Part shown: piece by piece, positions 14,101-46,518 of the stretch | Layout of the letters: each line of letters begins with the position of its first letter | Numbering within the stretch: position 1 is the stretch's first letter | Notes under the pieces: model-generated | What the model was told of the DNA's origin: nothing | Seen by the model: only the letters and a program-made list of their open reading frames with translations | The model's database searches: none | Assembly: GCA_000806115.1 (NCBI GenBank) | Contig: JWKQ01000002.1 | Span: 256,815 to 320,814, forward strand | Length of the DNA: 64,000 nt | From: an archaeon GW2011_AR5 | Lineage (GTDB): Archaea; Aenigmatarchaeota; Aenigmatarchaeia; GW2011-AR5 | Direction of reading: 5' to 3' | Program-made: the position numbers and the translations under genes

Positions 14101-15585
14101 CTGGCGCCATCCATTATGTCAGCAAACCAAACAGCAACTGCTATGCTCAACATAAGCGTGACGTCATCCGGTGAGTCGATGAACATAACAAGCTTCAATT
14201 TCACGCTTACAGGCAACGCGACAACTGGCAACATCAGCGACGTGCGTCTTTACAGGGACGACGCAGCGCCACTGGGCGCATTCACGGACGCGGACACATA
14301 TCTGGTAACTCGAGGCACGTTTAACGAAGCAGATATCCAGCTCAACCTTTCAGTTATCAACTACAACCTGTCAGTGCCAACGAGCGCGACAAGGTTCTTC
14401 GTGACATTCAATATATCCGGCGGCGCTCGTACATGGGCAACAGTTGGGGTGCAACTCACTCCTAGCGGCATAGCGGCTGTCGGCAATGCATCAGGCCTTG
14501 CAATATCAGTGACGGGCAATTCAGTTGCATCCACGAACTCGACGATCCAGTCCGAAGCAAACCTGATATTCGGCACCGTCACGTCGAACTATCCTTGGAT
14601 TACCAACAAGACAACTTTGGTAAACACAACTAACATTTCAATTCCGATAACGAACGGGGGTGCAGCCACGGCAACATTGACGAGCGTGCTTATAACGTTC
14701 CTCAGCGAGGCCAATGCCAACAATGCATCGTCCAATTTCACTGTGGTCCGTGCTGACACAGTTGCATCAATAGCGGGCGGTGTCACAACTACGCTGAACT
14801 TCACTGTAAACGCCACGACAGGCGCGCAGCTTGTCGGCCGCGTAAACGCTAGCGTGATGCTGAGATATAATGACAGCAATTCCGCCGCCGCAGTCACAGC
14901 CGGCCCTGTAGAGACAAACACATCAGGATTGTTCGGCGTGGACGGGACATCGCCGACAATAAGCATAGTCAACCCTGTCCTCAGCGGCAATGTCAGCGGC
15001 AATCAGGTTGACGTAAACTTCACTCTCAATGACACGGGCTCTGGAGTCAACAGAAGTGCAATAGCAATAAGCATAAACAGCGTGGCGAGGAACGCGACAT
15101 GCAACAGCAGCGGGCTCAATTTCACCTGCAATTTCACGCTTTTCAGCAGCGACAGCTTGTTTGTGTTCGGAAGCATCACCGCGCGAATAACGAATATCAC
15201 TGACAACGCGACGAACTCGGCGAGCACGGCAGAAATCAACTTCACGCTCAACAACAATGATGGTGTCGCGAATCTGACAAGGCCGATAGTAGGCGCGGAC
15301 CCGTATGCTCTTGGCTGGAATACCATCCAGATGCCGACGCAGACCATGATGGAACAGCAGGGCAGGAATGCGTCGAACACCGGTGATTTCAACTTCACGT
15401 CGCTCATGGCGAGCCTGGGCACCAGCTGGACTCACATGTATTACAATACAAACGGCACGAGCACAGGCTGGGTACTGGCAACAAGGACGGATTTCGCGGG
15501 TTCCACGCTGAAATATCTGAACAACACGAATGCCAATCCTTACTGGATAAACATGACATCGCGTGGCATGGTGTTCAAGATATAA
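8104..15585 (+). CDS. Giant (2493 aa) secreted, N-glycosylation-sequon-saturated repeat protein (adhesin or S-layer-associated)
   Basis: N-terminal signal/anchor GVIFSAVFVAAIALFYVLPVFA, then about ten tandem ~150-165-aa modules. There is roughly one NxS/T sequon every 10-15 residues (by eye, not counted), no cysteine-rich domain and no C-terminal anchor. GGAGTG lies 8 nt upstream of the ATG. Confidence 0.9.
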   Translation: MNGFMKGIIKTGVIFSAVFVAAIALFYVLPVFAGPGITLTRENPSPANNTNVSTVGLARGYFFVNISINESLISLANLEVYNLSDAGSLFMNFTMTNSTDNTILNYTYFNVTGLFNGTFTWRVVGVNTSSLGANQTFGNFTVTLGQIYNAVITNPTNNTNTANDLTPEIRVSANSTFLTNMSLTLYTNKAGVIQAVRNLTILNGTETAFNLTQLTGGTYNIIAEAGNGADFKVNSTALTIVVTYLEANATLDVSNVRAGAEQNYTFTVANNGTDTIDRINITYDAGFEDPVAGDIVCPITTNIWNRSVDATNNMVSCIMPDRDVDSGITSGNSKTIKVENWSASNVAGNKTFLVDVRGLKNGNSSVVANMPAVAVFGNLTITGTSRAAAANQTGTTNLTMISFNFSATGEQMNITQIILTRNGTVTDADIVEVKLYNSTRENVGAAYNATEDFDIIAVNSSAPSNGRYTFSGLNFRVNSSQIVIVVVNVSSSATGGRTMNFSIEGAADVTSAGNESKQAITETFASQRSTSTTLYGTVSVTGASRAPATSAIGAGNVTVISFNFTTTGEAVNITGLNITLNGTGLTAADIKHIGLYNSTSADAGVLDGSGVNYDLIQWNISEPVKPGDDTTLRYNFSNIAFNVSSGATNVLLVVVNVSGSATGGHKFNASIEGAGDIISTGVSSGQSLVETLATMRSDNSTIYGNLSIVGTSRVSSTTQIGSKNVTVISFNFTATGEDMNITGINITINGTNLAVSNIDRVALYNSTLPNANVFNGTVSYDLIAWNNSAPVVTGSSMRYNFSNLGKFNVSSSAVNTLLVVINLTDEGVAGRTFNASIEGAADVVTKGGTSNLAITETISGQRSTSSTIYGNVSVVGSSIAPAGADVGQIGVGFLKLTLNATGEAVNISSINITSNNTRNQDVLRVRLFDDLGGTSTGTYERNADLPVAGATGSFGGDSSGSVLLTPTNPINISVNSLHYVYVVFDINTSATAGLDRLGASIQSVTATTAQGNDSYVSVTPQLTTGDPGAVNVDIRNLTGTASAITTGTAVARTGAGTLNNFTVTVNNTATGTLKDSIDEIRILFGGTGFTFADQAGNATCPTIASVPWNRTIISANIIVCNVTDSGGRLAADTNTTISLENFTASGTAGIYQLNVSVRGALGGVFNVSSNPSISVYGNLTAKATNGVNATTEVGKNRITFFYINLSASGEAMNVSEILVTFNGTGLVAADIASVELYNSTDKSTTIVNGSQTLIRTNVTPSAPDLTYNFSGLNLSVPADVTGQIVLVVANISGSATGGHVANATVINNNNMVTIGSLTGINAAENFTTQVNSTNTTIIGNLSIVGTSRVSSTTAIGTNNITIISFNFTAAGEAMNISGINITINGSSITAADIVGVALYNSTLPNANVFNGTVSYDLIAWNNSAPVKPGDDTTLRYNFSNLGKFNVSAGETNTLLVVINLSSSATGGRAFNASIEGAADVVTTSAISDKSITETFVSQRSATSTILGTLSITGTSRVATYTRLGTNNVTIISFNVSSSGEAMNITGINITLNGTRTTADIARVGIYNSTLPDAGVFNGTVSYDLIAWNNSEPVNGRYNFSNIAFNISSGGSNTLLVVVNVSSSAIGGLTFNASIEGAADVVTTGVTSGSTIAETVATPRSDSSTLVSLIAIGTSRAPATAIVNKTNITLISFNVSALGEQMNISGINITINGTVNVSAIASVGIYNSTLPDAGVFNGTVSYDLIAWNNSEPVGGGGNTLRYNFSNLGKFNVSVGSNTLLVVVNLSGNAAGGATFNASIEGAADMVTTGGVSGLDITETLATQRSSSTTIFGNLSVTATDSLASWTRLGSTNVTVLILNFTATGEQMNVSEIILTRNGTVTDANIIEVKLYSTDRPDIANFNGSQTPLVTNLTPSANRYNFSNINLSVPAGATGKIVLVVVNVSGTNTGAGGSTFNFSVESASDIVSSGNTSYQSIAETLTGSIRSNTSTLVGINVTATALAPSIMSANQTATAMLNISVTSSGESMNITSFNFTLTGNATTGNISDVRLYRDDAAPLGAFTDADTYLVTRGTFNEADIQLNLSVINYNLSVPTSATRFFVTFNISGGARTWATVGVQLTPSGIAAVGNASGLAISVTGNSVASTNSTIQSEANLIFGTVTSNYPWITNKTTLVNTTNISIPITNGGAATATLTSVLITFLSEANANNASSNFTVVRADTVASIAGGVTTTLNFTVNATTGAQLVGRVNASVMLRYNDSNSAAAVTAGPVETNTSGLFGVDGTSPTISIVNPVLSGNVSGNQVDVNFTLNDTGSGVNRSAIAISINSVARNATCNSSGLNFTCNFTLFSSDSLFVFGSITARITNITDNATNSASTAEINFTLNNNDGVANLTRPIVGADPYALGWNTIQMPTQTMMEQQGRNASNTGDFNFTSLMASLGTSWTHMYYNTNGTSTGWVLATRTDFAGSTLKYLNNTNANPYWINMTSRGMVFKI
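9232..14550 (+). repeat. About ten tandem coding repeats (~450-500 nt each) inside the giant gene
   Basis: The module consensus is ..G(T/A)SR....G..N(V/I)T.ISFNF(T/S)A.GE.MNI(T/S)GINIT.NGT....I..V.LYNST....VFNGTVSYDLIAWNNS.PV...RYNFSN..FNVS....TLLVV.N.S.SA.GG..FNASIEGAADVVT......I.ET....RS..ST. A CARDB-like segment occurs twice (about aa 250-380 and about aa 1040-1170), implying a higher-order duplication. Confidence 0.85.
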
Positions 15586-31661: not shown

Positions 31662-32018
31662 CTAAGGTGTAGATGCCGTGCCGCACCCGCATGTCCTTGC
31701 GCACGCCTCAGGCGTCATCGTGGTCTTGAAGTTCTCATTGCACGCGACTCCAAGGTTTTCTCCGGCAAAAGGAGCTGTCGATGTCGACGGCCTGTTGAAT
31801 GGATTGTAGCCCGATATTGTTATCGCGGTGACGCTCGCCGTGTCGCATCCGTATACGCTTCTGAGGGTGTTGCATCCGTTCGAATACGCCGCTGAAGTTG
31901 CAATAGTTCCTGTGCCCCCCACGAGCCAGCCGCTGAAGAATGCTGCAACCACGACGAGAACCAAAACAGCGATGGCCACGACTACTATCATGTTGATGGG
32001 CAGTTCAAGTCCTTTCAT
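31662..32018 (-). CDS. Short pilin-like protein with class-III (prepilin-type) signal, Cys-rich
   Basis: MKG|LELPINMIVVVAIAVLVLVVVAAFFSG: short basic leader ending in G, then an uninterrupted hydrophobic helix. The globular part has 6 Cys. Confidence 0.75.
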   Translation of the reverse strand: MKGLELPINMIVVVAIAVLVLVVVAAFFSGWLVGGTGTIATSAAYSNGCNTLRSVYGCDTASVTAITISGYNPFNRPSTSTAPFAGENLGVACNENFKTTMTPEACARTCGCGTASTP

Positions 32019-32328: not shown

Positions 32329-32700
32329 ATGAAGGGAGTATCACTTGCAATAGAAACGATAATATATCTGATACTCGCGGTCCTGGTTCTGATGGTGCTT
32401 ATAGGCTTCTTCCTTACGCAGGCGGGGCCGGCGCAGGACCAGTATGCGCTAGAAGCGAAGCGCAACAGCCTGTGCGGCGCTTACGTGACGAATGATTTCA
32501 GCTGCGCGGGAACCGGCGGCAATCCTGTGGCAGCCGCCAGCCCGTCTGTTGTCCAGAACATAGCAACAACCTGCGCAGAACTCAACCGAAGGTTTGGCTC
32601 CGCATACCGCTGCACCACAAGCTCAACCAGCGGTTCTGCGGCGCTCGACTGCATCAGGAGCTGCTGCATAACATGCCCGGTCAGAACTTCTTCACCTTAG
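32329..32700 (+). CDS. Short pilin-like protein with class-III signal, Cys-rich
   Basis: MKG|VSLAIETIIYLILAVLVLMVLIGFFL, with Glu at +6 as in archaeal KG|xxxxxE pilins. The globular part has 8 Cys. It is divergent from 31662..32018. Confidence 0.75.
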   Translation: MKGVSLAIETIIYLILAVLVLMVLIGFFLTQAGPAQDQYALEAKRNSLCGAYVTNDFSCAGTGGNPVAAASPSVVQNIATTCAELNRRFGSAYRCTTSSTSGSAALDCIRSCCITCPVRTSSP

Positions 32701-32703
32701 AAT

Positions 32704-34092
32704 TTAGCTTATTGTAAATCCTGTTGCAGTGCATTCGATCGTGCCGCCGCCCAGTATGTTGTTGCACATTTCCTGTTCTGCGCTTCCTCCGTCGTCCATG
32801 TTCCTGATTCTTTGCCCCGTGGACAGTTCATTGCCGGAAGGCATGTCTTGTATGTCTACGTTGCACGAGAACATAGCCCCGGCGCAGCATATCATGTCGC
32901 CCCCGCCGTTCCAGTTGAACTGCGCGAAACCGTCGGGAAGGAGGAAGTCGGGCGGCTGCCACAGGACGCAGTCAATGGCAGGCAGATAATCCTCGACCTT
33001 CATTTTGAGGCTTATGCGTTTTTTCTGGAATGTGTTGGCCGCAAGATCGTGGTAATAGTATCTTTCAGGCTCGGAATATGTGATTGTTGCATCGTAATGC
33101 AGCACCAGTCCCCAGCCGGGCGAGCGCGACGGCAATACCCCCGAGTTGTCCGCAGTGTTTGCGCTTAATGTCATCTCATTTATCGTAACATTGCCCCCGC
33201 CGTTTGCCGCGGCAACACCCGACAGGTAGTCCCGGAACGCGTCCTTGTACGCCTGCTGGCTTGCAGTAGGCGGGATGCCGAGCGCTCCCCGCGGCGCGTA
33301 GTGCGGCATTGCCGCATCGGGCGGCGGGCTTGTAGGACCTCCTTTGATAACATCTCCTGTCACAAGCAGCGCTTCCACCACGAGCCTTCCGGATGCCACC
33401 ATCTGCCTAAGCGAAGTGAACATGGTGTTGTTATTAGTCGTCTGGCGGCTTATTGCCCCCTCGCCGTAGCTTGCCGCGATTGTCTGCGTGAACGACTCCT
33501 CTATGCGGTCATCCAGCAGGTTGAATATCATGGTACTGGCTACGTTGTCCCCGTTTCTCGGAATGGTTATCGACACGCCGCCTGTTTGTTCGGGCCGTGG
33601 CATGGTCAGCTTAAGGAAATCGCGGGTCTGCAGCACGGTTTTGATGTAGTCAATGGCGTGATTGTCCCGGGGATAGCATATTTGAGGATTGAATCCGGCT
33701 GCATTGTATTTGCGGATTTGCGGGATTCTTCCCTCGCCGGCTATAATCTCGCCGGGCGCGCTCCTTTCGAAGGACGGGTTTGTTTGCATCCAGTAATCAG
33801 GATCCCTGATTGTTACGGGTCCGGAACTGTCGGGGCGCCCGCATCCTACGCTTTCGTCGCCTGTTATGAACGCCGCCTGCACAGTTGATATGAACCATGT
33901 TGTGCCGAGGGACTGGTTGAACAACGAGAAAGTCGACTTGAGGCGCATCAACGACAGCGACTCGAAGTTCAGCTTTGTCCTGCTCTCGATGTTGTTGTTT
34001 GCCATGTAGAGGTAAACGGCGAAGAAAGCCGTGAATATTGCTATGATAAGTATTGTGCCGACTGCCGTTCCTACTCCCTTGCTGCAATTCAT
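32704..34092 (-). CDS. Large pilin-like secreted protein (462 aa)
   Basis: MNCSKG|VGTAVGTILIIAIFTAFFAVYLYM is a prepilin-like N-terminus. This is the last gene of a 5-gene overlapping block (ATGA overlap with the upstream gene). Confidence 0.8.
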   Translation of the reverse strand: MNCSKGVGTAVGTILIIAIFTAFFAVYLYMANNNIESRTKLNFESLSLMRLKSTFSLFNQSLGTTWFISTVQAAFITGDESVGCGRPDSSGPVTIRDPDYWMQTNPSFERSAPGEIIAGEGRIPQIRKYNAAGFNPQICYPRDNHAIDYIKTVLQTRDFLKLTMPRPEQTGGVSITIPRNGDNVASTMIFNLLDDRIEESFTQTIAASYGEGAISRQTTNNNTMFTSLRQMVASGRLVVEALLVTGDVIKGGPTSPPPDAAMPHYAPRGALGIPPTASQQAYKDAFRDYLSGVAAANGGGNVTINEMTLSANTADNSGVLPSRSPGWGLVLHYDATITYSEPERYYYHDLAANTFQKKRISLKMKVEDYLPAIDCVLWQPPDFLLPDGFAQFNWNGGGDMICCAGAMFSCNVDIQDMPSGNELSTGQRIRNMDDGGSAEQEMCNNILGGGTIECTATGFTIS

Positions 34093-34940
34093 CGTGCAGT
34101 CACCTCCAGCGTTGCGACAGACTGCTTGTAAAGTAGAGGCACGATTGCCCTCACGGCTATTCCGGCGTCAACCTGATTGTCCGCCGTCATCGGCGCACAG
34201 CACGCGCGAGTATTGCCCCCGTTCAGCGGCGGACCGCATTCTGGCGGATTGCCCAGGTCAACCCGGCTCTCCTCGCATTCGTATTTCCATGAGGTGCCCC
34301 ATATCAGTTCATAGACGCGGGCGTAGAACGGCCTTTTCCCCTCGGAACACACGCCCTGTCCGCTGGGTCCGCAGCTGCGCACGTCCTTTGGATTCGGCAG
34401 GCTTTGGTATGCGGGTATGTCGTCCTTGCAGCAGTCTTTTTCAATCGGTGCGCCGCCTTCCGGCACATACAATATAGGGCACCGATAACTTCCGGAACTT
34501 ATTTGCACCCGTCCCACGCCGCAGGAGTCTGAACACCATCCTTCCAGATTGTCCCCGCATTTGCTCTCGGTGCTTTCCACTGACATGATTACGTTGTTGC
34601 CGTTGGCTATTGCTATCTCATATTCCCTGAGTTCGTATTTGTCAAGGTAGCTGGACAGGTATGACGGCAGCCCTGTGGTTTGCGCGTTCTGCAGCGATGT
34701 GACGGAAGTCTCGATTGACTGCTCGAAAACCGTCCTGTCGTCAAACTTCACGTGTGCGAGCACTTCCGCAATCATGAACGGCTTGTTCACCACGTGCACG
34801 AATTCTATCGAGTACGAAACAGGGTCGGCTGTGGAGAAGAACGGCAGTGTTATCTGAAGCCATATAAGCGTCCCGAGTATTATCATTGCAGCGACGAACA
34901 TTGTGAGTATGAGCGTCCAGAATGTATCTGATATGTTCAT
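34089..34940 (-). CDS. Cysteine-rich secreted/membrane-anchored protein (283 aa), pilus-locus component
   Basis: N-terminal hydrophobic helix FWTLILTMFVAAMIILGTLIWL. Cys clusters include CGDNLEGWCSDSCG, CPILYV..DCCKDD, CGPSGQGVCSEG and ECGPP..ACCAP. Confidence 0.8.
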   Translation of the reverse strand: MNISDTFWTLILTMFVAAMIILGTLIWLQITLPFFSTADPVSYSIEFVHVVNKPFMIAEVLAHVKFDDRTVFEQSIETSVTSLQNAQTTGLPSYLSSYLDKYELREYEIAIANGNNVIMSVESTESKCGDNLEGWCSDSCGVGRVQISSGSYRCPILYVPEGGAPIEKDCCKDDIPAYQSLPNPKDVRSCGPSGQGVCSEGKRPFYARVYELIWGTSWKYECEESRVDLGNPPECGPPLNGGNTRACCAPMTADNQVDAGIAVRAIVPLLYKQSVATLEVTAR

Positions 34941-35917: not shown

Positions 35918-36319
35918 CTAGATGGATGATATCTCAACCGCGCCGCCGCGCTTGCGTATCTCAAGCAGGCGGTTCGCCCTGCAGGCAAACTCCCCGTTTG
36001 TGCCCGCGTTGATAATTGTCGGGGTTTTTATCCCGCTCATCGTGTAAGATATGTTCGTGCCGGCGACTGGAGTGATGGACATATGTATGAGCCCGTTTGT
36101 GATGAGCACCCTGCAGTTCGCATTGGGCATGTTGAACCTGTAGGTTGTGCCGTCAGGCGAACTCTGCACGATGTTTATGACGCTCGCCAGTCGTTGCGAC
36201 TGCAGCTGCGCGGAGTTCTGCACAGCCTCACCGATGGCAACCTGAAGCGGATTCACGGCGAATACGATGAACACAAGCGTCAGGAAAGTGGTGACGAATA
36301 TCCATTCGAGCGGTTCCAT
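35918..36319 (-). CDS. Pilin-like protein (133 aa) lacking a leader peptide
   Basis: MEPLEWIFVTTFLTLVFIVFAV: Glu at position 5 followed by a hydrophobic helix, like a mature type IV pilin N-terminus. TATA CCTATATAATAG lies about 35 nt upstream. Confidence 0.7.
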   Translation of the reverse strand: MEPLEWIFVTTFLTLVFIVFAVNPLQVAIGEAVQNSAQLQSQRLASVINIVQSSPDGTTYRFNMPNANCRVLITNGLIHMSITPVAGTNISYTMSGIKTPTIINAGTNGEFACRANRLLEIRKRGGAVEISSI

Positions 36320-36416: not shown

Positions 36417-38300
36417 TTACCCAGGCCATCCCCAAGAAAGGCGGCGTTCGAAGAACTCCTTCCAGCTTTCGAGGTCTCCCTGCGGATAGTATTTCAGCAC
36501 CACAGCGTCCCTGGATGCGTCGCCGCTTATGTACGCCGTGTTCTCGTTTATCGGCGATAACCCGAACGCCCTTGCTATTCCCTGTGTATCAGACAACCAG
36601 TCATCCCTGTAGGGGTCGAAAGTCCAGCAAAACCCGTCAGGCTTGTCTTCCACAGTGATGCGCATGCATTGGCCTCCGTTAAAGCCTGTGAGTGGAATAG
36701 CAGAAGTATCCTGTATATCGGTGCCTATTTTTTCTAGGCATGTAAAATGAGTACCGACTTCATGTAGCTTACCGTCCCCGCCATATTGATATATTGGGTA
36801 GTTGACTGCATTTTCACATTCCATCTGATCGCATGGCACTTTTTCAATTTTCATCTGTTCTATTGAACAGTCGCTTGCCAAGTTGAAGTCCTGAACCTTG
36901 TATGAGAGAAACACGCCGCCAAGGAATTCCCCTATCTTTTCAGAAGCGTATCCAACGCCGAATATGGTGCACGTCTTGCAGAATCTCCACGATCTGCCAA
37001 GAACTTTCCAGCTTTTTCCGAGGACTTTGGATGATAGTTTCAATATGCCCCTTCCGAACCAGCTTAAAGCTCCTGTCAGTGTGAAAGCGGAGCCGGAGCC
37101 TGCAACGCCGACGACCTCGCCGACTACCAGTCCGGATCCGGTTGCTGCCGGTACGGCTGTGAATGTCACACCTTCAGCCACGTAAAGCCCCGCTGTAGTT
37201 GCAATCGGCGTGGCGGTTGGAATAGCGCTCAGTGCAGTACCGGAAGCAACGGCGGCTCCTGACGGAAGAATCAGAGCCGCCCCGACAGCCAGTACAGCCA
37301 CTCCAAGAACGCCTTCAAAAATATACCTTCTTTCATCACGCGCGTCGTATTTCATCTCGATGTATTTTATGTCGCTGCACTGCCTCAACGGATATTTGTA
37401 CACGCCCGTTCGCGTCTTCAGGCAGAGAGAATTATCACCGCACGGCGCATATTTTATTGCGCTCTTCTCGAAGCTCGTCAGTCCCTTGTAGTTGTTGAAA
37501 ATGAACGCGTTGTCGCCTTCCGATGCAACAGGGTTTTCCGAATCGGGGTTCACCAGATCCCTCCATTCGCCGAACTTGCTTAACGCTGCGAGAGTGCCGC
37601 CGGGTCCCGTGTCAACCGGACCCGCACCCCGTGAGCCGCCGCTCCCTCCGTAAGCGCTGTTGGGACCGTAGTAGAAATCGCTTCTCTTGCTTCCTATAAC
37701 CACGTTGTTGACTATAACGCCCTCGAGCTTCTTCGAGGTGAGCTCGACATCTTCATCGCCTACCACGCGCGTATTCCACAGCTGCTCGATGCTGTCGGAA
37801 TATGTTTTCACGTCAGCCGGAAGTCTGTTATCGTATCCTGCAGGAAGATGTGTGATGAGACGGTTCTCCATTCCCTGGTAAATCTCCCAGCCTGTTGCGT
37901 CGCCTGCAGGGAATGATTCATAGTAAAGGACAAAGTTCGGATCGCCGTTGGTTCTTATCAGCCATATGGGCATGACGGATATCAGGCTGGTGAATTTTGG
38001 CGTGTTCTGCGGCAGCTGAAAGTTGTTAACAGTCACCGGACTTCCTGTGAAGCATGCCTCGTCCATGGATGCGCGCAGCTTCTCGACGTTGGCGAATGCA
38101 ATCTGGTCATAAGGGTCGATGGTGGACATTGCTATGGACACAAGCAGCACAACACCGAGAAGCAGGAAGAGAAGGCTCATCATGGTGTACATTATCTCGG
38201 ATATCGACGTGTCACCCTTGCCGATCTTTTTCTTTTCAAAGAAAAGTCGAGAAAGAAAATAGTGATTCCTAGGCTTCTGTTTCCCATTGTTTTTTTTCAT
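36417..38300 (-). CDS. Large pilin-like protein (627 aa) with long basic leader and internal Gly/Ala/Val-rich hydrophobic region
   Basis: MKKNNGKQKPRNHYFLSRLFFEKKKIGKG|DTSISEIMYTMMSLLFLLLGVVLLV. The middle region is VLGVAVLAVGAALILPSGAAVASGTALSAIPTATPIATTAGLYVAEGV...GSGLVVGEVVGVAGSGSAF. The C-terminal domain has 8 Cys. Confidence 0.8.
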   Translation of the reverse strand: MKKNNGKQKPRNHYFLSRLFFEKKKIGKGDTSISEIMYTMMSLLFLLLGVVLLVSIAMSTIDPYDQIAFANVEKLRASMDEACFTGSPVTVNNFQLPQNTPKFTSLISVMPIWLIRTNGDPNFVLYYESFPAGDATGWEIYQGMENRLITHLPAGYDNRLPADVKTYSDSIEQLWNTRVVGDEDVELTSKKLEGVIVNNVVIGSKRSDFYYGPNSAYGGSGGSRGAGPVDTGPGGTLAALSKFGEWRDLVNPDSENPVASEGDNAFIFNNYKGLTSFEKSAIKYAPCGDNSLCLKTRTGVYKYPLRQCSDIKYIEMKYDARDERRYIFEGVLGVAVLAVGAALILPSGAAVASGTALSAIPTATPIATTAGLYVAEGVTFTAVPAATGSGLVVGEVVGVAGSGSAFTLTGALSWFGRGILKLSSKVLGKSWKVLGRSWRFCKTCTIFGVGYASEKIGEFLGGVFLSYKVQDFNLASDCSIEQMKIEKVPCDQMECENAVNYPIYQYGGDGKLHEVGTHFTCLEKIGTDIQDTSAIPLTGFNGGQCMRITVEDKPDGFCWTFDPYRDDWLSDTQGIARAFGLSPINENTAYISGDASRDAVVLKYYPQGDLESWKEFFERRLSWGWPG

Positions 38301-38305
38301 ATTTC

Positions 38306-38352
38306 ATCACGCGAACGCAAGTGAGCCACCCTTTATAATATTTTTCTTTCCC
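38306..38352 (-). promoter_or_regulatory. Promoter/initiator module copy B (upstream of the 627-aa gene)
   Basis: Minus strand reads GGGAAAGAAAAATATTATAAAGGGTGGCTCACTTGCGTTCGCGTGATGAAAT-ATG. It aligns with copies A and C. Confidence 0.5.
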
Positions 38353-38358
38353 ATTGCA

Positions 38359-38431
38359 AGCATTTCGTTCGAAATGCTGCACAGCAAGAGCTTTGCTCTT
38401 GCTCGTGAGGGCTTTCTTTTTTAAAAGAAAG
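38359..38431 (-). other. Three consecutive perfect hairpins after the mini-ORFs
   Basis: AGCATTTCG-tt-CGAAATGCT at 38359-38378. AGCAAGAGC-ttt-GCTCTTGCT at 38383-38403. CTTTCTTTT-tt-AAAAGAAAG at 38412-38431. Confidence 0.55.
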
Positions 38432-38434
38432 GGC

Positions 38435-38554
38435 TCAACGGAACCATTTCAGCACAGGATCAATATTCGGCACGACGCCTGCAAGCATAGATATCACCAC
38501 GGCAAAAACCAGGAGAGTAAGGACTATCGCCACAACGACGTATTCTATTCTCAT
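38435..38554 (-). CDS. 39-aa hydrophobic mini-protein, Flp-pilin-like N-terminus without leader
   Basis: Hand translation gives MRIEYVVVAIVLTLLVFAVVISMLAGVVPNIDPVLKWFR. Its ATG lies 1 nt after the stop of the preceding mini-ORF (TAAaATG). Confidence 0.5.
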   Translation of the reverse strand: MRIEYVVVAIVLTLLVFAVVISMLAGVVPNIDPVLKWFR

Positions 38555-38555
38555 T

Positions 38556-38690
38556 TTATCTCAGCACTCCGAGCAGAAGGTCTATGTTATTCTGTATTCC
38601 GCCGTTAAAATGTATGTAGATAAGCAGGCTTATTCCCAAGCCCAGAAGGCCTATCATGATGAACACCACTTCGGTTATTGTCAGTTCCAT
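38556..38690 (-). CDS. 44-aa hydrophobic mini-protein
   Basis: Hand translation gives MELTITEVVFIMIGLLGLGISLLIYIHFNGGIQNNIDLLLGVLR. GGAGAAG lies 9 nt upstream of the ATG. Confidence 0.55.
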   Translation of the reverse strand: MELTITEVVFIMIGLLGLGISLLIYIHFNGGIQNNIDLLLGVLR

Positions 38691-38715
38691 TTTCAAAATC
38701 TTCTCCTATTTCAGT

Positions 38716-39627
38716 CTATGCACACCCCGTAATAGTGGGAGTACAGCCGAGGTTTCTTGCGGCTTCGCACTGCCCGCACGCGCCCCTGCCGAACTTGCTG
38801 CACTCAGTAAACTGTTCGCATACCAAGCAGGAGTTTGCCCATGGCCAGTACCAAGGCCCGCCCCAGTAGCAGCTTGCAGTTGATGTGCAGTCGCTTTCAG
38901 CGGCATGCCTTCTGCAGGTGTCAATTCCACATTCCGCGTCCCTGTCTACCGGCACGTCGAACGATGAAAGATAAGCGTCCGGGTGGCTCTCGAGCATCTG
39001 CCTCAGAGTGGAGCTGTCGATGTCGTCCGTCAATCCGGGTTTGTCCAGCCATGTTGTAAAATGGAATACCTCCCTGTCCCGCAGACTTCCAATCTGGCGC
39101 ATGTCGAATTTCAGCTTCAGGTCTTGCGGACAAATGAATTCGCCGCTCGGTGCGGCACATGATATTATTTCCTGTGTGTTTCCGTTCGTATCGCTGTAAC
39201 TTCCCAGTATGAGTTTGCTCTGCGTGCCGGAGATGCCCATGTAGTCCATTATTACGACGAAGTCAAGGCGGTCACTTTGGGAGCCGGGATACGCCCTGTA
39301 GAAGAATTTTAAGCCGTCAAGTATTACCAGCTGCGCATTAGGCGTGCAGTCCAGTTTTGTGAACTTTTCCAGCCCGCCTTCGCCGGGATTGTCGTTGGTG
39401 ATGTAGAGCTTCCCAGGCTCAAATACCTGCCCGATCTGGTTGAATATCTTCCAGGGCGTTACGCCCGCAACTATCGCAATGCCTATCGCAATAACGAGTA
39501 CCATGACTATTATGTAGAACCATGCGCCCATCGTTATCTGGAAGCCCATAGATTTATTGTGTCCGGCTGAAATAAAAAGAAAAATAGCTCTGTAGAAAAC
39601 CTGTGAGAAAAGCAGCAGGAGCATCAC
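38716..39627 (-). CDS. Secreted/anchored protein with very Cys-rich C-terminus (303 aa as drawn)
   Basis: TM FYIIVMVLVIAIGIAIVAG. The C-terminus is CGIDTCRRHAAESDCTSTASCYWGGPWYWPWANSCLVCEQFTECSKFGRGACGQCEAARNLGCTPTITGC. The first 7 codons coincide with an inverted-repeat arm, so the true start may be MGFQ (39549) or MGAW (39531). Confidence 0.75.
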   Translation of the reverse strand: MMLLLLFSQVFYRAIFLFISAGHNKSMGFQITMGAWFYIIVMVLVIAIGIAIVAGVTPWKIFNQIGQVFEPGKLYITNDNPGEGGLEKFTKLDCTPNAQLVILDGLKFFYRAYPGSQSDRLDFVVIMDYMGISGTQSKLILGSYSDTNGNTQEIISCAAPSGEFICPQDLKLKFDMRQIGSLRDREVFHFTTWLDKPGLTDDIDSSTLRQMLESHPDAYLSSFDVPVDRDAECGIDTCRRHAAESDCTSTASCYWGGPWYWPWANSCLVCEQFTECSKFGRGACGQCEAARNLGCTPTITGCA

Positions 39628-39776: not shown

Positions 39777-40751
39777 TTACGCGAAGCAGTTCTTGTCAGG
39801 CCTGTCTATGCAGCCCGCATTGAGTTCGAATTTGCCGCCGAGCCTGTCCTCGCGGCATAATCCAAGCAGCACATTGAAGTCGCTCGATTGGCGGGTGCAT
39901 TCGTTGTCTTTCCAGAAGCTCAGGAGAACCGTCTCTCCCACGTTCTCCCAAGGCTCGCCGCAGAAGCTGCCTCCGAGGGTGCTGCACCCGTAATCAATTT
40001 CTGCATTCACGGCGTTTGCCGAACAGTCGGGCTCCGCATTCAGCATTATTGTGGCGGTTCCTCCGCACATATCTATGATTTGCTTCCATTCGCTCTCCGT
40101 GCTTCCTGGCGTGCCGTTAAGGCGGCTGCTGGTTTTTGTTATGCAGGGACCTCTCAGGGTGAACGTTGCCTTGCAGTCGTACTGGTTCACGGGATTAAAA
40201 TCAACGGCGTAATCGGCGTTGAAGTAATCGTCGACGTTTACTGCGGCGATTATTGCGCTCCTGCCGCTCCTGACAAGGACAGGCATCCTGTAACTGAACC
40301 TGTCGCTGTAGAATGCGTTGTCATATGTTTGTATCGGCATTATTTCGCTTATTATGTCTGCCTTTATGTTGGGTTCTATGATTTCATCCTCGACGCCTAT
40401 CGTGAAGCTGTCGCTGTCGCCTGTCGGGCTGCTGAAGGTCGCCCTGATACTTTGTCCCTTGAAGCTTATTATTGCGATGATATTCACGGGCGCCGTCCGT
40501 TTTCCAGTGACAGTTATGCGCGGCGCCGTTCTTATCTCGTATAAATAGTCGCCAACCCTTGAGCGGGGCGTGACATCAGCCTGTATCGGAGAATTGCTTA
40601 CGCCCGCAAATGCCAGCACAAGCGGCTGCGAGAGGTTTTCCTGTATGTTCTGCGGCAGTTTTGTCCCGATAAATCTTTCGTTGGCATACAGGACTATCGA
40701 GAACGCTATTATACCGAAAATTATGTACGCGATTATGTCGTGCTCTTCCAT
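39777..40751 (-). CDS. Secreted/anchored pilus-locus protein (about 324 aa)
   Basis: N-terminal anchor IIAYIIFGIIAFSIVLYA, a large beta-rich ectodomain and C-terminal Cys pairs. The ATG at 40751 shares 1 nt with the upstream stop (TGATG), and GGTGA lies 4 nt upstream. The track start is a GTG at 40763. Confidence 0.8.
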   Translation of the reverse strand: MEEHDIIAYIIFGIIAFSIVLYANERFIGTKLPQNIQENLSQPLVLAFAGVSNSPIQADVTPRSRVGDYLYEIRTAPRITVTGKRTAPVNIIAIISFKGQSIRATFSSPTGDSDSFTIGVEDEIIEPNIKADIISEIMPIQTYDNAFYSDRFSYRMPVLVRSGRSAIIAAVNVDDYFNADYAVDFNPVNQYDCKATFTLRGPCITKTSSRLNGTPGSTESEWKQIIDMCGGTATIMLNAEPDCSANAVNAEIDYGCSTLGGSFCGEPWENVGETVLLSFWKDNECTRQSSDFNVLLGLCREDRLGGKFELNAGCIDRPDKNCFA

Positions 40752-41143
40752 CAGCTCACCCACGGAAGCGAGCTTATTATGGAATCAAATACGCCGTAGA
40801 AGAAACTGCTGCTGCTCGGTCCCGCTTCGCCGCCGAGGCTTGCAAGTATCATGAAGAGCACGATGGCAACTACAAGGAAAAATACGATTGTTGCCAAAAG
40901 CGTGGTGGTAATCACTATGCCGCGTGAATTATGCTTTTTGGACCCCTTAGTCTTGCTTTTTTTTCTTATCAGCGGCTCGAACAGCGCGAGTCCCGCAGCC
41001 CCGCTGCTTATCTGTTCTATGTTCTGCGCGGTGGTTGTTGAGACATCGCTCTCGACGGTATACCAGTATGCGATGGCTATTCCAAAAACCATCAGTATTG
41101 CGATGATTATAGTCATCAAGTCAACGGGCAGCATGGCTTTCAA
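40751..41143 (-). CDS. Two-TM membrane protein (130 aa), pilus-locus component
   Basis: MKAMLPVDLMTIIIAILMVFGIAIAYWY..., a basic loop KKSKTKGSKKHNSRG, then a second TM. It has an ATGA overlap with the upstream gene. Confidence 0.7.
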   Translation of the reverse strand: MKAMLPVDLMTIIIAILMVFGIAIAYWYTVESDVSTTTAQNIEQISSGAAGLALFEPLIRKKSKTKGSKKHNSRGIVITTTLLATIVFFLVVAIVLFMILASLGGEAGPSSSSFFYGVFDSIISSLPWVS

Positions 41144-41389: not shown

Positions 41390-43372
41390 TTACCCTCTCA
41401 CAAGGCTGCTTGTTATCAGCGGCTCAAACATCACAAGCGTGACAAGCATGCATACTGTGAAGACCACGAAACCGACAATCAGCGATGTGCCAGTGATGTT
41501 CTGCCTGCCTATGGGATCCTCTCCGGACTCAATCGAATTTATGAACATGGCAAGTATGAAGGCAGTTTCAATCAGGTAAACTCCGACAATAAGTATGAAC
41601 TCGAACGGCGTAATCTTTACGTTGCCCAGCGAGGTTAGGAAAGGCACACTTACGCTGCCCAGGTTGCTCGTCTGTTCTGATATCTGCCTCAGTATCTTGA
41701 TGATTATCACAGCCAGCGTGACAACAATGCCCGATATGAGCGGAGAGAGAAAGTAAGACTGGAATTTTAGTGATGAGAGGGTGTCATTGAGCTGCTCTTT
41801 CACGTCTTCCTGGGTGTCGTGCAGCCCTTTCAGGTAGCGCGAGACGGAAAGCATCGCAACCGACGCGGTTCTTACGCCTTTTTTTGTCGATTCCACCACG
41901 GTTCTCATGATGGACTTGATGAGCTTGGAGGGATAGAATCTTATTGCCCCGTACTCCTTGTCGAAAAATGCCTGTCCGAACGTGAAGCCCAGCATCTTCA
42001 TGTTCTTGAGCGCCCTGCCAAACAAGTCCTTTATCTTCAGGTTTTGTATCCTTTCCATCGAGTGTTCCAGAGAAAGCTCTACAGGCACGCCTCCTGATAT
42101 CTGGTTTCCAAGCTGGAAAAGAGCCTCAGCAAATTCGCCTTCTATTTCCCTGGTTTTGCGGCGGATGGCGAGCCGCTGTTTTGACAGCATGATGTAGTAG
42201 ACCCCGAAGCCGAAGGAGATGCCCATCAGGATTACGATTGCGGGAAATATACCTTCGAAATCCGTGGAAGCGAAATACTCATTCACCGTCATAAAAGCCC
42301 CGAGGGCGATTATCATCACCCCTACAAGCAGCCCGACATGCCAAGCCTTGTAGAATTTTTTTCCCATTGCGAATTTGCCGGGCGGCGGAACGTCGGGATT
42401 CTCGGTAATATCTATCTTGCTGAAGGTGGCGGGCCTGGTCTCTAGTATTCCTGATATCACGAAATACAGCACGAGGGGAAGTATTATGTCATATCCGACG
42501 AAAAGCACCTCGGACGACACGCCGAGGAATGCCGCGAGTATGGGGAAAAGCACGAGTCCCATGACAGGGAGCACTATTCCGAGCGCGTGCACAACCATCA
42601 CCGGCATCTTGAGGTCCTGGTTGAAGTGCTTCGCCTGTTCCCTGCTTCCTTCGAGCACGATGTCAACCGCCTCGTCCAGCAGCACGATACGCTTGTCCCC
42701 GACCTGCTTCAGCGACGTTATCATCAATTCAACCGCCTCGACGAACGGCCTGTTCTTCGCCCAGCGGCTCGTGAAATCAACCAGCGCCTCCTGCATTGTC
42801 AGGTAATTTCCGATTTCCACGTCCCAAAGCAGTTTTTTCATCTCGTAGCCCATCGAGCCGCCGAGATTTTCCGCGGCGAATTTCACCGCAGCCTCGAGGT
42901 TAGGCACGTTTCTCATGTACATCGCTATGTAGAGAACAAGCGTGACTATTTCCGAGCCCGCGTCCGATTCGTATTTGCGCCGCAGACGCTTCGGGTAGGT
43001 GTGCACGTAAAAAGTGAAGAAGAGGGAAAGCATCAGCAGCATTAATCCGTAGCCGAAGGAAATCCCGGGAAGCTTCAAAGCGGTGAGAGCCATCAGGATT
43101 ATGGTCGGGATGACGGTTGCGAGAAGGAAAAATATTGTTACGGAAGTCGTCCCGCCGGGCGTCACTTTCAGGTGCGCGAACTCAATGGTTTCCTGTATCT
43201 TCGCGCGCGACTTTTTGTCAGGCTCGATGTGAATTATTCTCTCTGAAAAGCGGCACGCCTTCTCGTAGAGCGACTTGGGCATTGAGGCGAAGGCTTCTTC
43301 TTCCTGGTAAAGCCGGTATTCGCGCGATATGAGGTTGCGTATCTGTTCTTCCCGCTTTCTCTTCGAAGGCAT
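41390..43372 (-). CDS. Polytopic type IV pilus/archaellum platform protein (T2SS-F / FlaJ / TadC-like)
   Basis: 660 aa with two repeats of cytoplasmic helical domain plus TM triplets. Its position next to the secretion ATPase fits a platform protein. Assigned by architecture, not by a specific motif. Confidence 0.8.
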   Translation of the reverse strand: MPSKRKREEQIRNLISREYRLYQEEEAFASMPKSLYEKACRFSERIIHIEPDKKSRAKIQETIEFAHLKVTPGGTTSVTIFFLLATVIPTIILMALTALKLPGISFGYGLMLLMLSLFFTFYVHTYPKRLRRKYESDAGSEIVTLVLYIAMYMRNVPNLEAAVKFAAENLGGSMGYEMKKLLWDVEIGNYLTMQEALVDFTSRWAKNRPFVEAVELMITSLKQVGDKRIVLLDEAVDIVLEGSREQAKHFNQDLKMPVMVVHALGIVLPVMGLVLFPILAAFLGVSSEVLFVGYDIILPLVLYFVISGILETRPATFSKIDITENPDVPPPGKFAMGKKFYKAWHVGLLVGVMIIALGAFMTVNEYFASTDFEGIFPAIVILMGISFGFGVYYIMLSKQRLAIRRKTREIEGEFAEALFQLGNQISGGVPVELSLEHSMERIQNLKIKDLFGRALKNMKMLGFTFGQAFFDKEYGAIRFYPSKLIKSIMRTVVESTKKGVRTASVAMLSVSRYLKGLHDTQEDVKEQLNDTLSSLKFQSYFLSPLISGIVVTLAVIIIKILRQISEQTSNLGSVSVPFLTSLGNVKITPFEFILIVGVYLIETAFILAMFINSIESGEDPIGRQNITGTSLIVGFVVFTVCMLVTLVMFEPLITSSLVRG

Positions 43373-44295: not shown

Positions 44296-46518
44296 TCAGT
44301 AGCTCTTCCGAAGCCACTGAAGCCATCTGTCGTATATGAGCGTGCTGTCCAATGCGCCTAATTCTTCTTTCACTTCGCTGCTTATGATATGGAAATGGGA
44401 ATTCGACGCTATTATGTTGTTCGCTTCGAGCAAGTCCAGACGGTTGTTGACGTTCGCGTAATCGACAATCGTCTGCATAATCTTGCCGCGCAGCTTTATG
44501 TTGTTCCACACGGCGTCCCAGTTGCCCTTCCACTCGCGCACGCGCTGGGCTATGTCGTTCAGCACAGCCGACTCTCCCATGAGCAGTGTCTTGCTTGGCT
44601 TTAGCACATCGTCCTTCGCCGAATAGTCAAGAAGGTTGACGAACCCGCCTTCTTCAGCCGGATCATTCTTCCAGTGCTTGCGGACCTCCGTCAGCTCGAC
44701 GCATCTTCTGAAAGATTTCAGACCGTCCGGCGATTTCAGCATGTTCGCAATGAGTATCATGTCAGTCGCCTTGAAGCTCGTGGGCGGCACGCCAAGGTCG
44801 TTCACAACCCTGTCGAACACGCCATAGGCAGAGTCGCCGTGGATTGTTCCCATGACTACGTTGGCTAATGCGCCGATTCGCATGGCTTCGTACAGCGCGA
44901 GCGCTTCCCTGCTTCTCACTTCGCCGATGACAAGAGCGGAATCGCCCAGGCGCAGCGCGGTTCTCAGCGCCTCTTCGGCGGGCAGTTCGGTGTCAACGTT
45001 GGTTATTACGCTTCGCGATTTCATGCTCTGGATATTATATCCAAGGTCGCGCAACTGATGGATCGGCAGTTCCAGTGTGTCTTCCACTGAAATAATTCTC
45101 AGCTTCGGCATTATCTGCACCATCAGCGCGCCGAGCATGGAACTCTTGCCTGATGATCTCGTGCCTGCTATAAGCATCGTCCTCGAGCCGTCAATCAGGA
45201 ACCACAGCAAGCCTGCGGAGAAAGGATCTAGCATCTTGTTGTTTATGAAAAGCGGGAGCGTCCATGGCTTGTCGCGATGCCGGCGGAAAGCGAAGCCGAG
45301 CCCGTCGGGCGACAGCGTTCGCGTAATCGCCGCGACTCTTGCCCGCCCCCCGGGCACTTCTATTTCAGTGTCAAGCACCGGGTTCGCCTCATCCAGCGGA
45401 CGCCCCGACTTTAGCCTGAATCTGGTCGCCCATGATTCCCCGTCTTCCCGGCTCGGCACGATGTTCGTTTCGCATTCCTGGTATATGCCGTGGAACAGGT
45501 AGACGGGTGACGTGCCGATCGGCGAGTTTATCTCGATGTCCTGCACGTTCTCGTCCTGGAGGATCAGGTCAAGTATTCCAAGACCGGCAGTGTATCTTGC
45601 AAGGATATTGGCAAGTTCTTCCAGACGCTTCTCCTGTATGTCGTGGTCCGCCGCCAGGTCACGCAGCATGTCTAAGCCGATTCTGAAAAGATTTTCACGT
45701 ATCCTTTCCGGCTCCTCGAGTTCGCTCTCTCTCGGTTCGTGCCTGCCAAGGTATCGCCGCGCCGTGTCGAGCATGTTGTATTCGATTTCATTGAGCCTGA
45801 ACTCGGGAGGGATGATGTGATAAAGCCGCCTCACCTGTCCCGGTATTGCATAGATTTCTATCTCAGTTTCCTCAACATTGTACCTTTCAAGCAGTTCGGC
45901 GTTCGCCGGCGGCAGCGATATGTATCGCGTGTAAATGAAATTGGGCCTGATAGTCGGGTGGAATATGCGCCTGTAGAGCGACCTGTCCTTGTGTTCGGTG
46001 ATGTTCGGCTTGGCCAGTTGAATGAGGCGGCAGTTGTCGAGCACAGCCGCTATCGGAAGCAGGGAATTGTTCAGGTAGTGGTTGTAGCACTGCTGCTTCA
46101 GTCCGGTTTCCCTCTCGGATTTTACTTTTATTCTCCTGATTTCCCGCGTGAGCGACCTGTAAGCTTCTATGGGGTCAAAACGGAGGTCGTTGAGAAGCCG
46201 CTGGAGAAAACGGTACCTTTCCTGCGAGTCGTCTTCGCAGCCGGCGATGACAACGTTCTTCAAAGAAATGAGCCTGTCCTTCATCAGGCGCTCGATTGCA
46301 AGCGCGATTTCCAGCAGCATCTTCGACTCTGTGAAGTCATATTCATACTCCCGCACGCCGGCGAAGACGATACGCACGACCTTCTTCAGTTCCATCAGTT
46401 TGTCGATGGTAGTTGCCATGCATGCGCTGTAGTCCTCGATGGAGTCGCCGTACAGCCCTCCGACGCAGTTGATGCGCATTTTTTGCGTCTCCTCGTCGTA
46501 GTCGTATTCGTACACCAT
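44296..46518 (-). CDS. Type IV pilus/secretion ATPase (VirB11/FlaI/PilB-TadA superfamily) with a long N-terminal extension
   Basis: Walker A IAGTRSSGKSSMLGAL, Walker B/Asp box ALVIGEVRSREA and His box VMGTIHGDSAYGV. At 740 aa it is about 200 aa longer than typical FlaI. Confidence 0.92.
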   Translation of the reverse strand: MVYEYDYDEETQKMRINCVGGLYGDSIEDYSACMATTIDKLMELKKVVRIVFAGVREYEYDFTESKMLLEIALAIERLMKDRLISLKNVVIAGCEDDSQERYRFLQRLLNDLRFDPIEAYRSLTREIRRIKVKSERETGLKQQCYNHYLNNSLLPIAAVLDNCRLIQLAKPNITEHKDRSLYRRIFHPTIRPNFIYTRYISLPPANAELLERYNVEETEIEIYAIPGQVRRLYHIIPPEFRLNEIEYNMLDTARRYLGRHEPRESELEEPERIRENLFRIGLDMLRDLAADHDIQEKRLEELANILARYTAGLGILDLILQDENVQDIEINSPIGTSPVYLFHGIYQECETNIVPSREDGESWATRFRLKSGRPLDEANPVLDTEIEVPGGRARVAAITRTLSPDGLGFAFRRHRDKPWTLPLFINNKMLDPFSAGLLWFLIDGSRTMLIAGTRSSGKSSMLGALMVQIMPKLRIISVEDTLELPIHQLRDLGYNIQSMKSRSVITNVDTELPAEEALRTALRLGDSALVIGEVRSREALALYEAMRIGALANVVMGTIHGDSAYGVFDRVVNDLGVPPTSFKATDMILIANMLKSPDGLKSFRRCVELTEVRKHWKNDPAEEGGFVNLLDYSAKDDVLKPSKTLLMGESAVLNDIAQRVREWKGNWDAVWNNIKLRGKIMQTIVDYANVNNRLDLLEANNIIASNSHFHIISSEVKEELGALDSTLIYDRWLQWLRKSY

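Follow-up and report, generated by a model that had tools for sequence, protein, structure and literature searches.

Two conserved leaderless, pilin-like mini-genes in a type IV filament operon of Aenigmatarchaeota

We analysed a stretch of 64,000 nucleotides (nt) from contig 2 of the archaeon GW2011_AR5, hereafter the window, whose host genome comprises 0.86 Mb in three contigs. The analysis concerns two very short genes, here called mini1 and mini2, which lie back to back on the minus strand between two larger genes, p303 and p627. Public copies of the same small proteins carry the label Candidatus Aenigmatarchaeota. In the direction of transcription, the genes and the signal in front of them are arranged as follows:

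38716..39627, minus strand: p303, a protein rich in Cys that has a membrane helix at its N-terminus and is always found immediately 5′ of mini1; the leader state of its orthologues varies
38700..38706, minus strand: GGAGAAG, a putative Shine-Dalgarno-like element recognised from the sequence only, 9 nt 5′ of the mini1 ATG and inside the 25-nt gap behind the p303 stop
38556..38690, minus strand: mini1, a 44-amino acid (aa) leaderless protein with a single predicted membrane helix, evidently a paralogue, in truncated form, of the canonical type IV pilins that the operon encodes
38435..38554, minus strand: mini2, a 39-aa leaderless protein with a single predicted membrane helix and an M-R-x-E-Y N-terminus that is nearly invariant across its family
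36417..38300, minus strand: p627, a large protein whose N-terminus has a membrane helix, in all cases immediately 3′ of mini2

The open reading frame (ORF) of mini1 runs from 38690 to 38559 (44 aa, product MELTITEVVFIMIGLLGLGISLLIYIHFNGGIQNNIDLLLGVLR) and ends in a stop codon at 38558–38556, while that of mini2 runs from 38554 to 38438 (39 aa, product MRIEYVVVAIVLTLLVFAVVISMLAGVVPNIDPVLKWFR) with its stop at 38437–38435. The two are joined by the sequence TAAaATG. A preliminary description, made from the letters of the window, had reported the pair of ORFs, this junction and the GGAGAAG 9 nt upstream, and all three were confirmed from the sequence. Upstream of the mini2 ATG the frame is closed by a TGA at a distance of three codons, and no other start codon intervenes. 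The protein must therefore begin with M-R-I-E-Y, and a leader is impossible. Each of the two genes is single-copy, and a search of the genome for further mini1 or mini2 paralogues found none.

We gathered the loci of relatives through a search with p303 and observed the same two small ORFs wherever the sequence continues downstream of that gene. In 24 syntenic loci, from the same genus as well as from other genera, the order p303–mini1–mini2–p627 is kept together with the frame and the length, and in at least 17 of the 24 the mini1 position is filled by a small leaderless single-helix ORF. The differences at codon positions 1/2/3 amount to 0.42/0.21/0.64 for mini2 and 0.41/0.16/0.59 for mini1. 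Conserved frames in syntenic T2SSE/T2SSF loci and drift of the third position had been proposed as a check in the preliminary description, and this is what we found: the frames are kept and position 3 differs most. For the pair, synonymous differences (pS 0.5–1.0) stand against nonsynonymous ones of pN 0.19–0.43, with synonymous sites near saturation, and dN/dS, where computable, is about 0.1–0.5. Judged by these figures, the codon pattern is that of purifying selection on the protein, and we regard mini1 and mini2 as genuine genes.

A sceptic might still hold that the two frames are open by chance, or that the stretch is non-coding and belongs, for instance, to a regulatory RNA. They are very short, searches of Pfam and NCBIfam gave nothing significant for either protein, and a sequence search of the PDB with the mini2 profile gave no match at E≤10. 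Against this, frame, length and residues are kept across genera despite the saturated synonymous sites, and the exhaustive search described below returned 75 clusters, all with the same start. A scan of positions 38150–38850 against Rfam yielded only a match at chance level (best E 0.61, far under the gathering score). On the strength of the codon statistics, the exhaustive family search and the 24-locus frame check we rejected the chance-frame explanation, and its probability appears negligible.

The exhaustive search with a hidden Markov model (HMM) of mini2 covered 1.84 billion protein representatives at E≤1e-3. The matches begin at residue 1, and the 75 clusters are 38–59 aa long save for one over-called frame of 84 aa. 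Three longer matches have an internal Met or Val immediately 5′ of the Arg, which indicates that their starts were over-called. A leadered ancestral form of mini2 was not found among the matches. A word-indexed search added 28 relatives of mini2 (38–44 aa) and 17 of mini1 (43–50 aa); the named ones are hypothetical proteins, and none of the relatives has a Pfam domain.

Over 96 sequences the N-terminus of mini2 reads M-R-[ILMVT]-E-[Y85/H7]. R-x-E stands directly behind the initiator in 94 of the 96, and a K/R-G leader in none; residue 5 is Tyr in 85 and His in 7 of 94 sequences. The Glu-Tyr pair, at positions 4–5 counted from the retained Met, is missing from mini1. In the 24 loci an in-frame stop is located 0–30 codons 5′ of the mini2 motif, and K/R-G occurs in none of them. 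An apparent leader reading KGGG↓LMRIEY (the arrow marks a predicted cleavage site) in loci L033 and L057 was rejected: these codons coincide with part of the mini1 gene, read in a different frame.

A scan of the phylum at E≤0.01 returned mini2 matches in 57 of 301 genomes, and the strong full-length ones are confined to the window's family and two other families of the same order. Weak matches of the same class that start at profile position 5–10 were taken as generic membrane helices, with the exception of small ORFs inside the homologous ATPase–FlaJ locus. Among 41 genomes of the window's family, mini2 and p627 are both present in 30 and both absent from 6, p627 occurs alone in 5, and mini2 alone in none. 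All 5 of the p627-only genomes belong to one genus, g10. In the two g10 loci that were read, a diverged 40-aa positional orthologue (MKPVEVVVAMAAM..., with the start M-K-P-V-E, MKPVEVVV, and no Tyr) lies behind a mini1-like ORF. As far as its sequences tell, mini2 defines an unannotated protein family, and we found no description of the mini1 or mini2 families in the literature.

Within the genome, mini1 has relatives among the pilins of the same locus, of which two, each about 120 aa long, have a canonical class III signal:

31662..32018, minus strand: pil118, a canonical pilin with the class III signal MKG↓LELPINM; the homology partner of mini1
32329..32700, plus strand: pil123, a canonical pilin with the class III signal MKG↓VSLAIET

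When the mini1 HMM was compared with all 10,396 ORFs of the genome, pil123, pil118, p303 and p627 were found at ranks 3, 5, 10 and 15, each aligned from the residue behind its predicted K-G or M-G site. In hhalign, mini1 was set against an N-terminal block of 34 canonical pilins (pil118/pil123 type, K-G in all), which gave a probability of 94.5% with a score of 35 over 38 columns. Here MELTITEVVF... of mini1 pairs with LELPINMIVV... of the pilin, and Met1 of mini1 corresponds to residue +1 of the mature pilin. As controls, seven blocks of FlaJ membrane helices gave at most 4% and a score of at most 14.5. Between mini1 and mini2 the probabilities were 88% and 73%; relative to mini1, mini2 has a five-residue deletion near its N-terminus, and the two have in common a C-terminal G-G/x-x-N-I-D motif. 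Set against the controls, these probabilities therefore point firmly to mini1 as a leaderless, truncated paralogue of the operon's pilins and suggest that mini1 has in mini2 a paralogue that is shorter still and whose pilin ancestry would be transitive through mini1. With regard to the features that define a type IV pilin, homology of the N-terminal helix was found directly for mini1 and through mini1 only for mini2. Of the class III signal, the hydrophobic tract is present and the leader and the Gly at −1 are missing.

The two proteins had previously been described as leaderless pilin-like mini-proteins of the Flp type. The first part of this description is borne out by the register of mini1 Met1 with pilin +1 (94.5%) and by the absence of K/R-G from the mini2 family. 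The second part found no support. Flp_Fap (PF04964) matches neither window protein at E≤1, and at E≤10 the whole genome as well as 29 of 29 family members are silent, whereas the control search of genomes gave a match in 8 of 14. The homology is with the locus's own archaeal pilins, and Glu-Tyr stands at positions 4–5, not 5–6.

Two transmembrane segments forming a hairpin had been named beforehand as incompatible with pilin packing. The AlphaFold models contain helices 5–28 and 31–43 for mini1 (pLDDT 91) and 3–24 and 32–38 for mini2 (pLDDT 86). They thus predict one membrane helix and a short second helix in each protein, not a membrane hairpin.

The mini genes belong to a larger minus-strand series, which also includes the assembly ATPase, a platform protein and a gene with leadered mini-pilin halves:

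44296..46518, minus strand: T2SSE-family secretion ATPase of 740 aa, identified by PF00437 (E 7.8e-16) and synteny
41390..43372, minus strand: T2SSF/FlaJ-like polytopic platform protein of 660 aa, identified by PF00482 (E 2.2e-4, under the curated cut-off) and synteny
40751..41143, minus strand: p130, a fused pair of mini-pilin genes, whose second half retains the class III site SRG↓IVITTT

In the window the series consists of proteins that have an N-terminal helix, lack a Pfam domain and in many cases are Cys-rich (p130, p328, p303, mini1, mini2, p627, p133, p322, p283 and p462). In other genera a collinear operon runs through the ATPase, FlaJ, one or more small proteins, p328, p303, mini1, mini2, p627, p133, p322, p283, p462, pilins and FEN1. 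We describe it as an operon of about 13 genes of the type IV filament type in one Aenigmatarchaeota family, and at least two sister families carry the mini pair too. Within it, the mini genes are obligate members. In relatives the gaps between the genes around the minis measure −4 to +8 nt, and the canonical pilins have divergent promoters of their own. Such narrow gaps suggest that the minis would be expressed in step with p303 and p627.

The two halves of p130 are separate ORFs in 4 of the 5 relatives compared (L012, L013, L014 and L016), and in the fifth (L015) there is a single ORF of 124 aa. The linker of p130 is highly basic, and a GTG right behind the SRG↓IVITTT site could act as an internal start.

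Between mini2 and p627 the window has a spacer with several features:

38301..38434, minus strand: 134-nt spacer with three perfect 9-bp palindromes (38412–38431, 38383–38403 and 38359–38378)
38350–38331, minus strand: BRE (B recognition element)/TATA-like box AAAGAAAAATATTATAAAGG within the spacer
38307–38327, minus strand: repeated motif GGCTCACTTGCGTTCGCGTGA within the spacer

Three hairpins followed by a promoter had been taken as a layout typical of a highly expressed structural gene. The hairpins and the promoter-like box are present, but as a mark of such a gene they do not serve, the spacer being strain-specific and a repeated cassette. It was seen in this genome only, while in relatives mini2 abuts or overlaps p627 (−4 to +6 nt). 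Moreover, a 78-nt part of the spacer has a 90% identical copy on contig 1 of the genome (G000 C1:353780-353857). The underlying module occurs at no fewer than 7 intergenic sites and is composed of a CCTTTCTTTT..AAAGAAAGG hairpin, the BRE/TATA-like AAAGAAAACATATTAT and, about 8 nt on, the partly palindromic GGCTCACT(G/T)GCGTTCGCG. Besides the window and C1:353780-353857, the sites are C1:13532, C1:59375, C1:133543, C1:29928, C2:384875 and C2:383663. The module could be a mobile terminator–promoter cassette, or else a shared operator or a hairpin of 5′ untranslated regions. Because it is strain-specific and partly a repeated cassette, the spacer is uninformative on the expression of the minis in general. 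The ancestral layout, as reconstructed from the relatives, is one in which the mini genes are tightly coupled with p303 and p627. A scan for sigma-70 promoters, which has no relevance for an archaeon, remained at chance level.

Directly behind the spacer, the N-terminus of p627 (38210–38300) carries a basic extension of 29 aa, MKKNNGKQKPRNHYFLSRLFFEKKKIGKG↓DTSISE, in this genome only; the orthologues start short and acidic. The extension contains an 8-bp palindrome, TTTTCTTT-GA-AAAGAAAA, which resembles those of the inserted cassette. It seems that insertion of the cassette created a new p627 start and a class III-like K-G site.

The presence or absence of a leader was then compared across the operon, which gave the following states:

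Canonical pilins: K-G in 34 of 34 sequences
p462: K-[GA] in 19 of 19 orthologues
p328: leaderless throughout, with an acidic start
p133: MKG↓VEPLQW or MKG↓MEELTK in other genera; MEPLEW, MDSLHW or MEPLMV in the window's genus
p283: MKG↓... in about 15 loci; MNISDTFW in the window
p627 and p303: mixed leader states
Second half of p130: KKG↓IVVSTQLL in some genomes; MELTAKTL in another

In the window both p133 (35918–36319; MEPLEW..., with a stop two codons ahead of the Met) and p283 (34089–34940; MNISDTFW..., with a stop directly ahead of the Met) are leaderless. For these larger pilin-like proteins, comparison with the orthologues indicates a recent loss of the leader. Since families of the operon exist with and without K-G, leader loss is recurrent in this machine.

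Two p133 orthologues read ...KSKG↓IEPLQW (L040, G277:C61) and ...RKKG↓QDSLQW (L016, G014:C15). No ATG, GTG or TTG is present from the upstream stop to K-G in the former, nor in the 24 codons shown before the site in the latter. Either a start codon of a non-canonical kind or a mistake in the assembly may explain this.

Four loci from other families of the class (L058–L061, in G109, G104, G069 and G049) have the ATPase and FlaJ genes followed by a leadered mini-pilin, MKG↓LSGYV..., of about 56–60 aa. Behind it stands a leaderless protein of 41–42 aa beginning ME[TMV]K[FV].... From these loci it follows that the pairing of leadered and leaderless minis reaches beyond the window's family.

The lack of a peptidase gene in the locus had been put forward as support for peptidase-independent pilins. 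The locus does lack one. As an argument, this fails, since a Peptidase_A24 gene is located on contig 1 of the same genome, outside the locus, and the family has it in 36 of 41 genomes, including 10 of 10 high-quality ones. Because the peptidase is retained, the leaderless state is no consequence of its loss; leaderlessness is a stable property of particular components of the operon.

To our knowledge, the defining feature of every described type IV filament subunit, bacterial or archaeal, is a class III signal peptide, which a dedicated peptidase removes. Because this signal is missing from them, the mini families fall outside the published pilin definitions. In type IV pilins a short basic leader with Gly, or Ala in the class III definition, at −1 precedes a tract of about 21 hydrophobic residues; the Flp pilins are the shortest known, perhaps consisting only of the α1N helix, and their long leader, which also ends in Gly, is cut off by a dedicated peptidase (PMC4471445). 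According to a survey from 2026, archaeal type IV filament systems include the class III peptidase as a core component, and DPANN genomes rarely have an ordered locus (PMC13705601). The pilus loci of DPANN are rich in unrecognised proteins, presumed to be pilins on account of their signal peptides (PMC6393860).

Compared with archaeal type IV pilins (Pilin_N PF07790, DUF361 type), mini1 has a homologous helix and both minis share the operon with a T2SSE ATPase and a FlaJ/T2SSF platform. Unlike those pilins, the minis have no leader and no Gly/Ala at −1, hence no peptidase site, and they lack the globular C-terminal domain (39–44 aa in all against about 115 aa). With Flp/Fap (PF04964) they have in common the very short, essentially helix-only form and the neighbourhood of a TadA-like ATPase and a TadB/C-like platform. 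They differ in that they fail the profile and have no leader. A Glu-Tyr pair near the start of the hydrophobic helix is seen in mini2 but not in mini1, at 4–5 from the Met rather than 5–6 from the cleavage site. The leadered mini-pilins of the operon itself (the p130 halves, and in relatives the 45–60-aa MKG↓... proteins after FlaJ) resemble them in size and in their sequence of a membrane helix, a break rich in Gly and a short helix of amphipathic character. These, however, have the K/R-G↓ class III site in most genomes, and mini1 and mini2 never do. ArlF and ArlG (FlaF and FlaG) form the stator of the archaellum; they are archaellin-like, with an N-terminal helix as an anchor and a folded extracellular domain, and they are not bulk filament subunits. 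The likeness to the minis drawn here is one of concept: a machine part derived from a pilin or archaellin that stays outside the bulk filament.

These results allow us to favour, with some hesitation, a reading in which mini1 and mini2 are uncleaved, helix-only, pilin-like subunits with a minor, priming or anchoring role together with p303 and p627. Each would consist of the N-terminal hydrophobic helix of a pilin, a Gly/Pro break and a second helix of 7–13 residues. They would be translated already in a mature-like form, with the initiator Met in the place of the first residue behind K-G↓, so that the prepilin peptidase would have nothing to cut. In relatives the pair may be translationally coupled to p627. 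With the M-R-x-E-Y end and the hydrophobic helix, the minis might dock onto the platform or onto other pilin-like helices. Once docked, they would not make up the bulk filament but would help the large subunits to assemble, as primers, anchors or spacers. We infer the membrane topology and the binding partners of the minis from their sequences. A minor or anchoring role is favoured because relatives probably express the minis in step with their neighbours and not from a promoter of their own, because the canonical pilins retain both leader and peptidase, and because the Arg2 of mini2 and the charges of mini1 look unlike those of a subunit of a hydrophobic core.

Several observations weigh against the anchoring role and the pilin ancestry behind it. 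The N-terminal flank of mini1 is acidic (net −1.2, almost no K/R) and its C-terminal end is basic; by the positive-inside rule, an N-out/C-in orientation would therefore be favoured, which is the opposite of that of a pilin. The retained Arg2 of mini2 would need burial or pairing inside a filament core. In direct comparison of mini2 with the pilins hhalign gave 20%, and one FlaJ control reached 24%, so the link of mini2 to the pilins is transitive only. Pilin_N (PF07790) matched just 5 of 29 mini2 members, weakly and below threshold (best E 0.048), with no match to the window's own copy. Finally, the extreme conservation of the N-terminus would suit a true assembly substrate as well as a component of the base. 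Because it fits both, the choice between a minor or anchoring role and a filament subunit is weakly founded.

The second of these two roles would make the minis true filament-forming, helix-only pilins, similar in size to mature Flp, which the ATPase and the platform would polymerise with no peptidase step. Pairing of Arg2 with Glu4 would then replace the classical pairing of Glu5 with the N-terminal amine. The minis are pilin-derived and in register with the mature N-terminus, the invariance of M-R-x-E-Y at their very start is of the kind seen in pilins, and in size and helix–break–helix shape they come near the shortest known pilins (PMC4471445). Leader loss is also tolerated in other pilin-like proteins of the operon. 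What makes us think such a filament unlikely is that the genes in relatives appear translationally coupled rather than driven by a dedicated strong promoter, and that the terminator and promoter layout is strain-specific. The canonical pilins, moreover, have K-G in 34 of 34 cases and the peptidase is kept, which suggests that processing still matters for bona fide subunits, and the charge distribution of mini1 opposes the orientation of a pilin. Equally doubtful, in our estimation, is the broader proposal that pilins of this lineage are translated in their mature form, with Met at +1, extracted from the membrane and polymerised or co-polymerised, so that the leader and the peptidase would not be obligatory there.

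As another alternative, the proteins could be small membrane accessory or regulatory proteins that are no longer pilin-like and whose pilin ancestry is historical only. They might stabilise the FlaJ-like platform, act as insertion chaperones for p303 and p627, or be competitive regulators at pilin-binding sites. The strict adjacency to p303 and p627, the co-occurrence with p627, the weak direct similarity of mini2 to pilins, the charges of mini1, which suggest that its topology might be inverted, and the single copy of each gene in the genome would all agree with such a function. Two observations speak against it: conservation is concentrated in the first five residues, an uncommon pattern in a generic subunit that packs by its helix, and leaderless minis recur beside leadered mini-pilins in other families of the class, which points to a shared pilin-like logic. 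We therefore regard a purely accessory function as rather unlikely and retain the uncleaved, pilin-like subunit with a minor, priming or anchoring role as the preferred interpretation.

What is new here is a conserved operon with pilin paralogues that appear to have lost their leader permanently, while larger pilin-like proteins switch state among genera. The operon displays an evolutionary path to leaderlessness, since p133, p283 and the p130 halves occur with and without the MKG leader. If any of the leaderless proteins still assemble, processing would be dispensable for assembly in this lineage, and the leader would be left with membrane targeting and topology as its only role. Since DPANN archaea rely on host-cell contact, the parts of their surface filament machines are of direct biological interest. 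As the mini families are short and have no signal motif, profile-based surveys miss them. With them, the unannotated "dark matter" in the pilus loci of DPANN gains two concrete families (PMC6393860).

The 0.86-Mb genome contains five T2SSE-family ATPase genes (G000 C2:195066-195755, C1:96660-97352, C2:301557-302033, C2:220717-221091 and C2:152046-152168), and the mini pair accompanies just that of the window. In one of the loci from other families (L060, G069:C1, positions 10427-14176), the ATPase orthologue lies in a frame of 1249 aa against about 740 aa elsewhere, the result either of a fusion with the upstream gene or of an over-extended frame.

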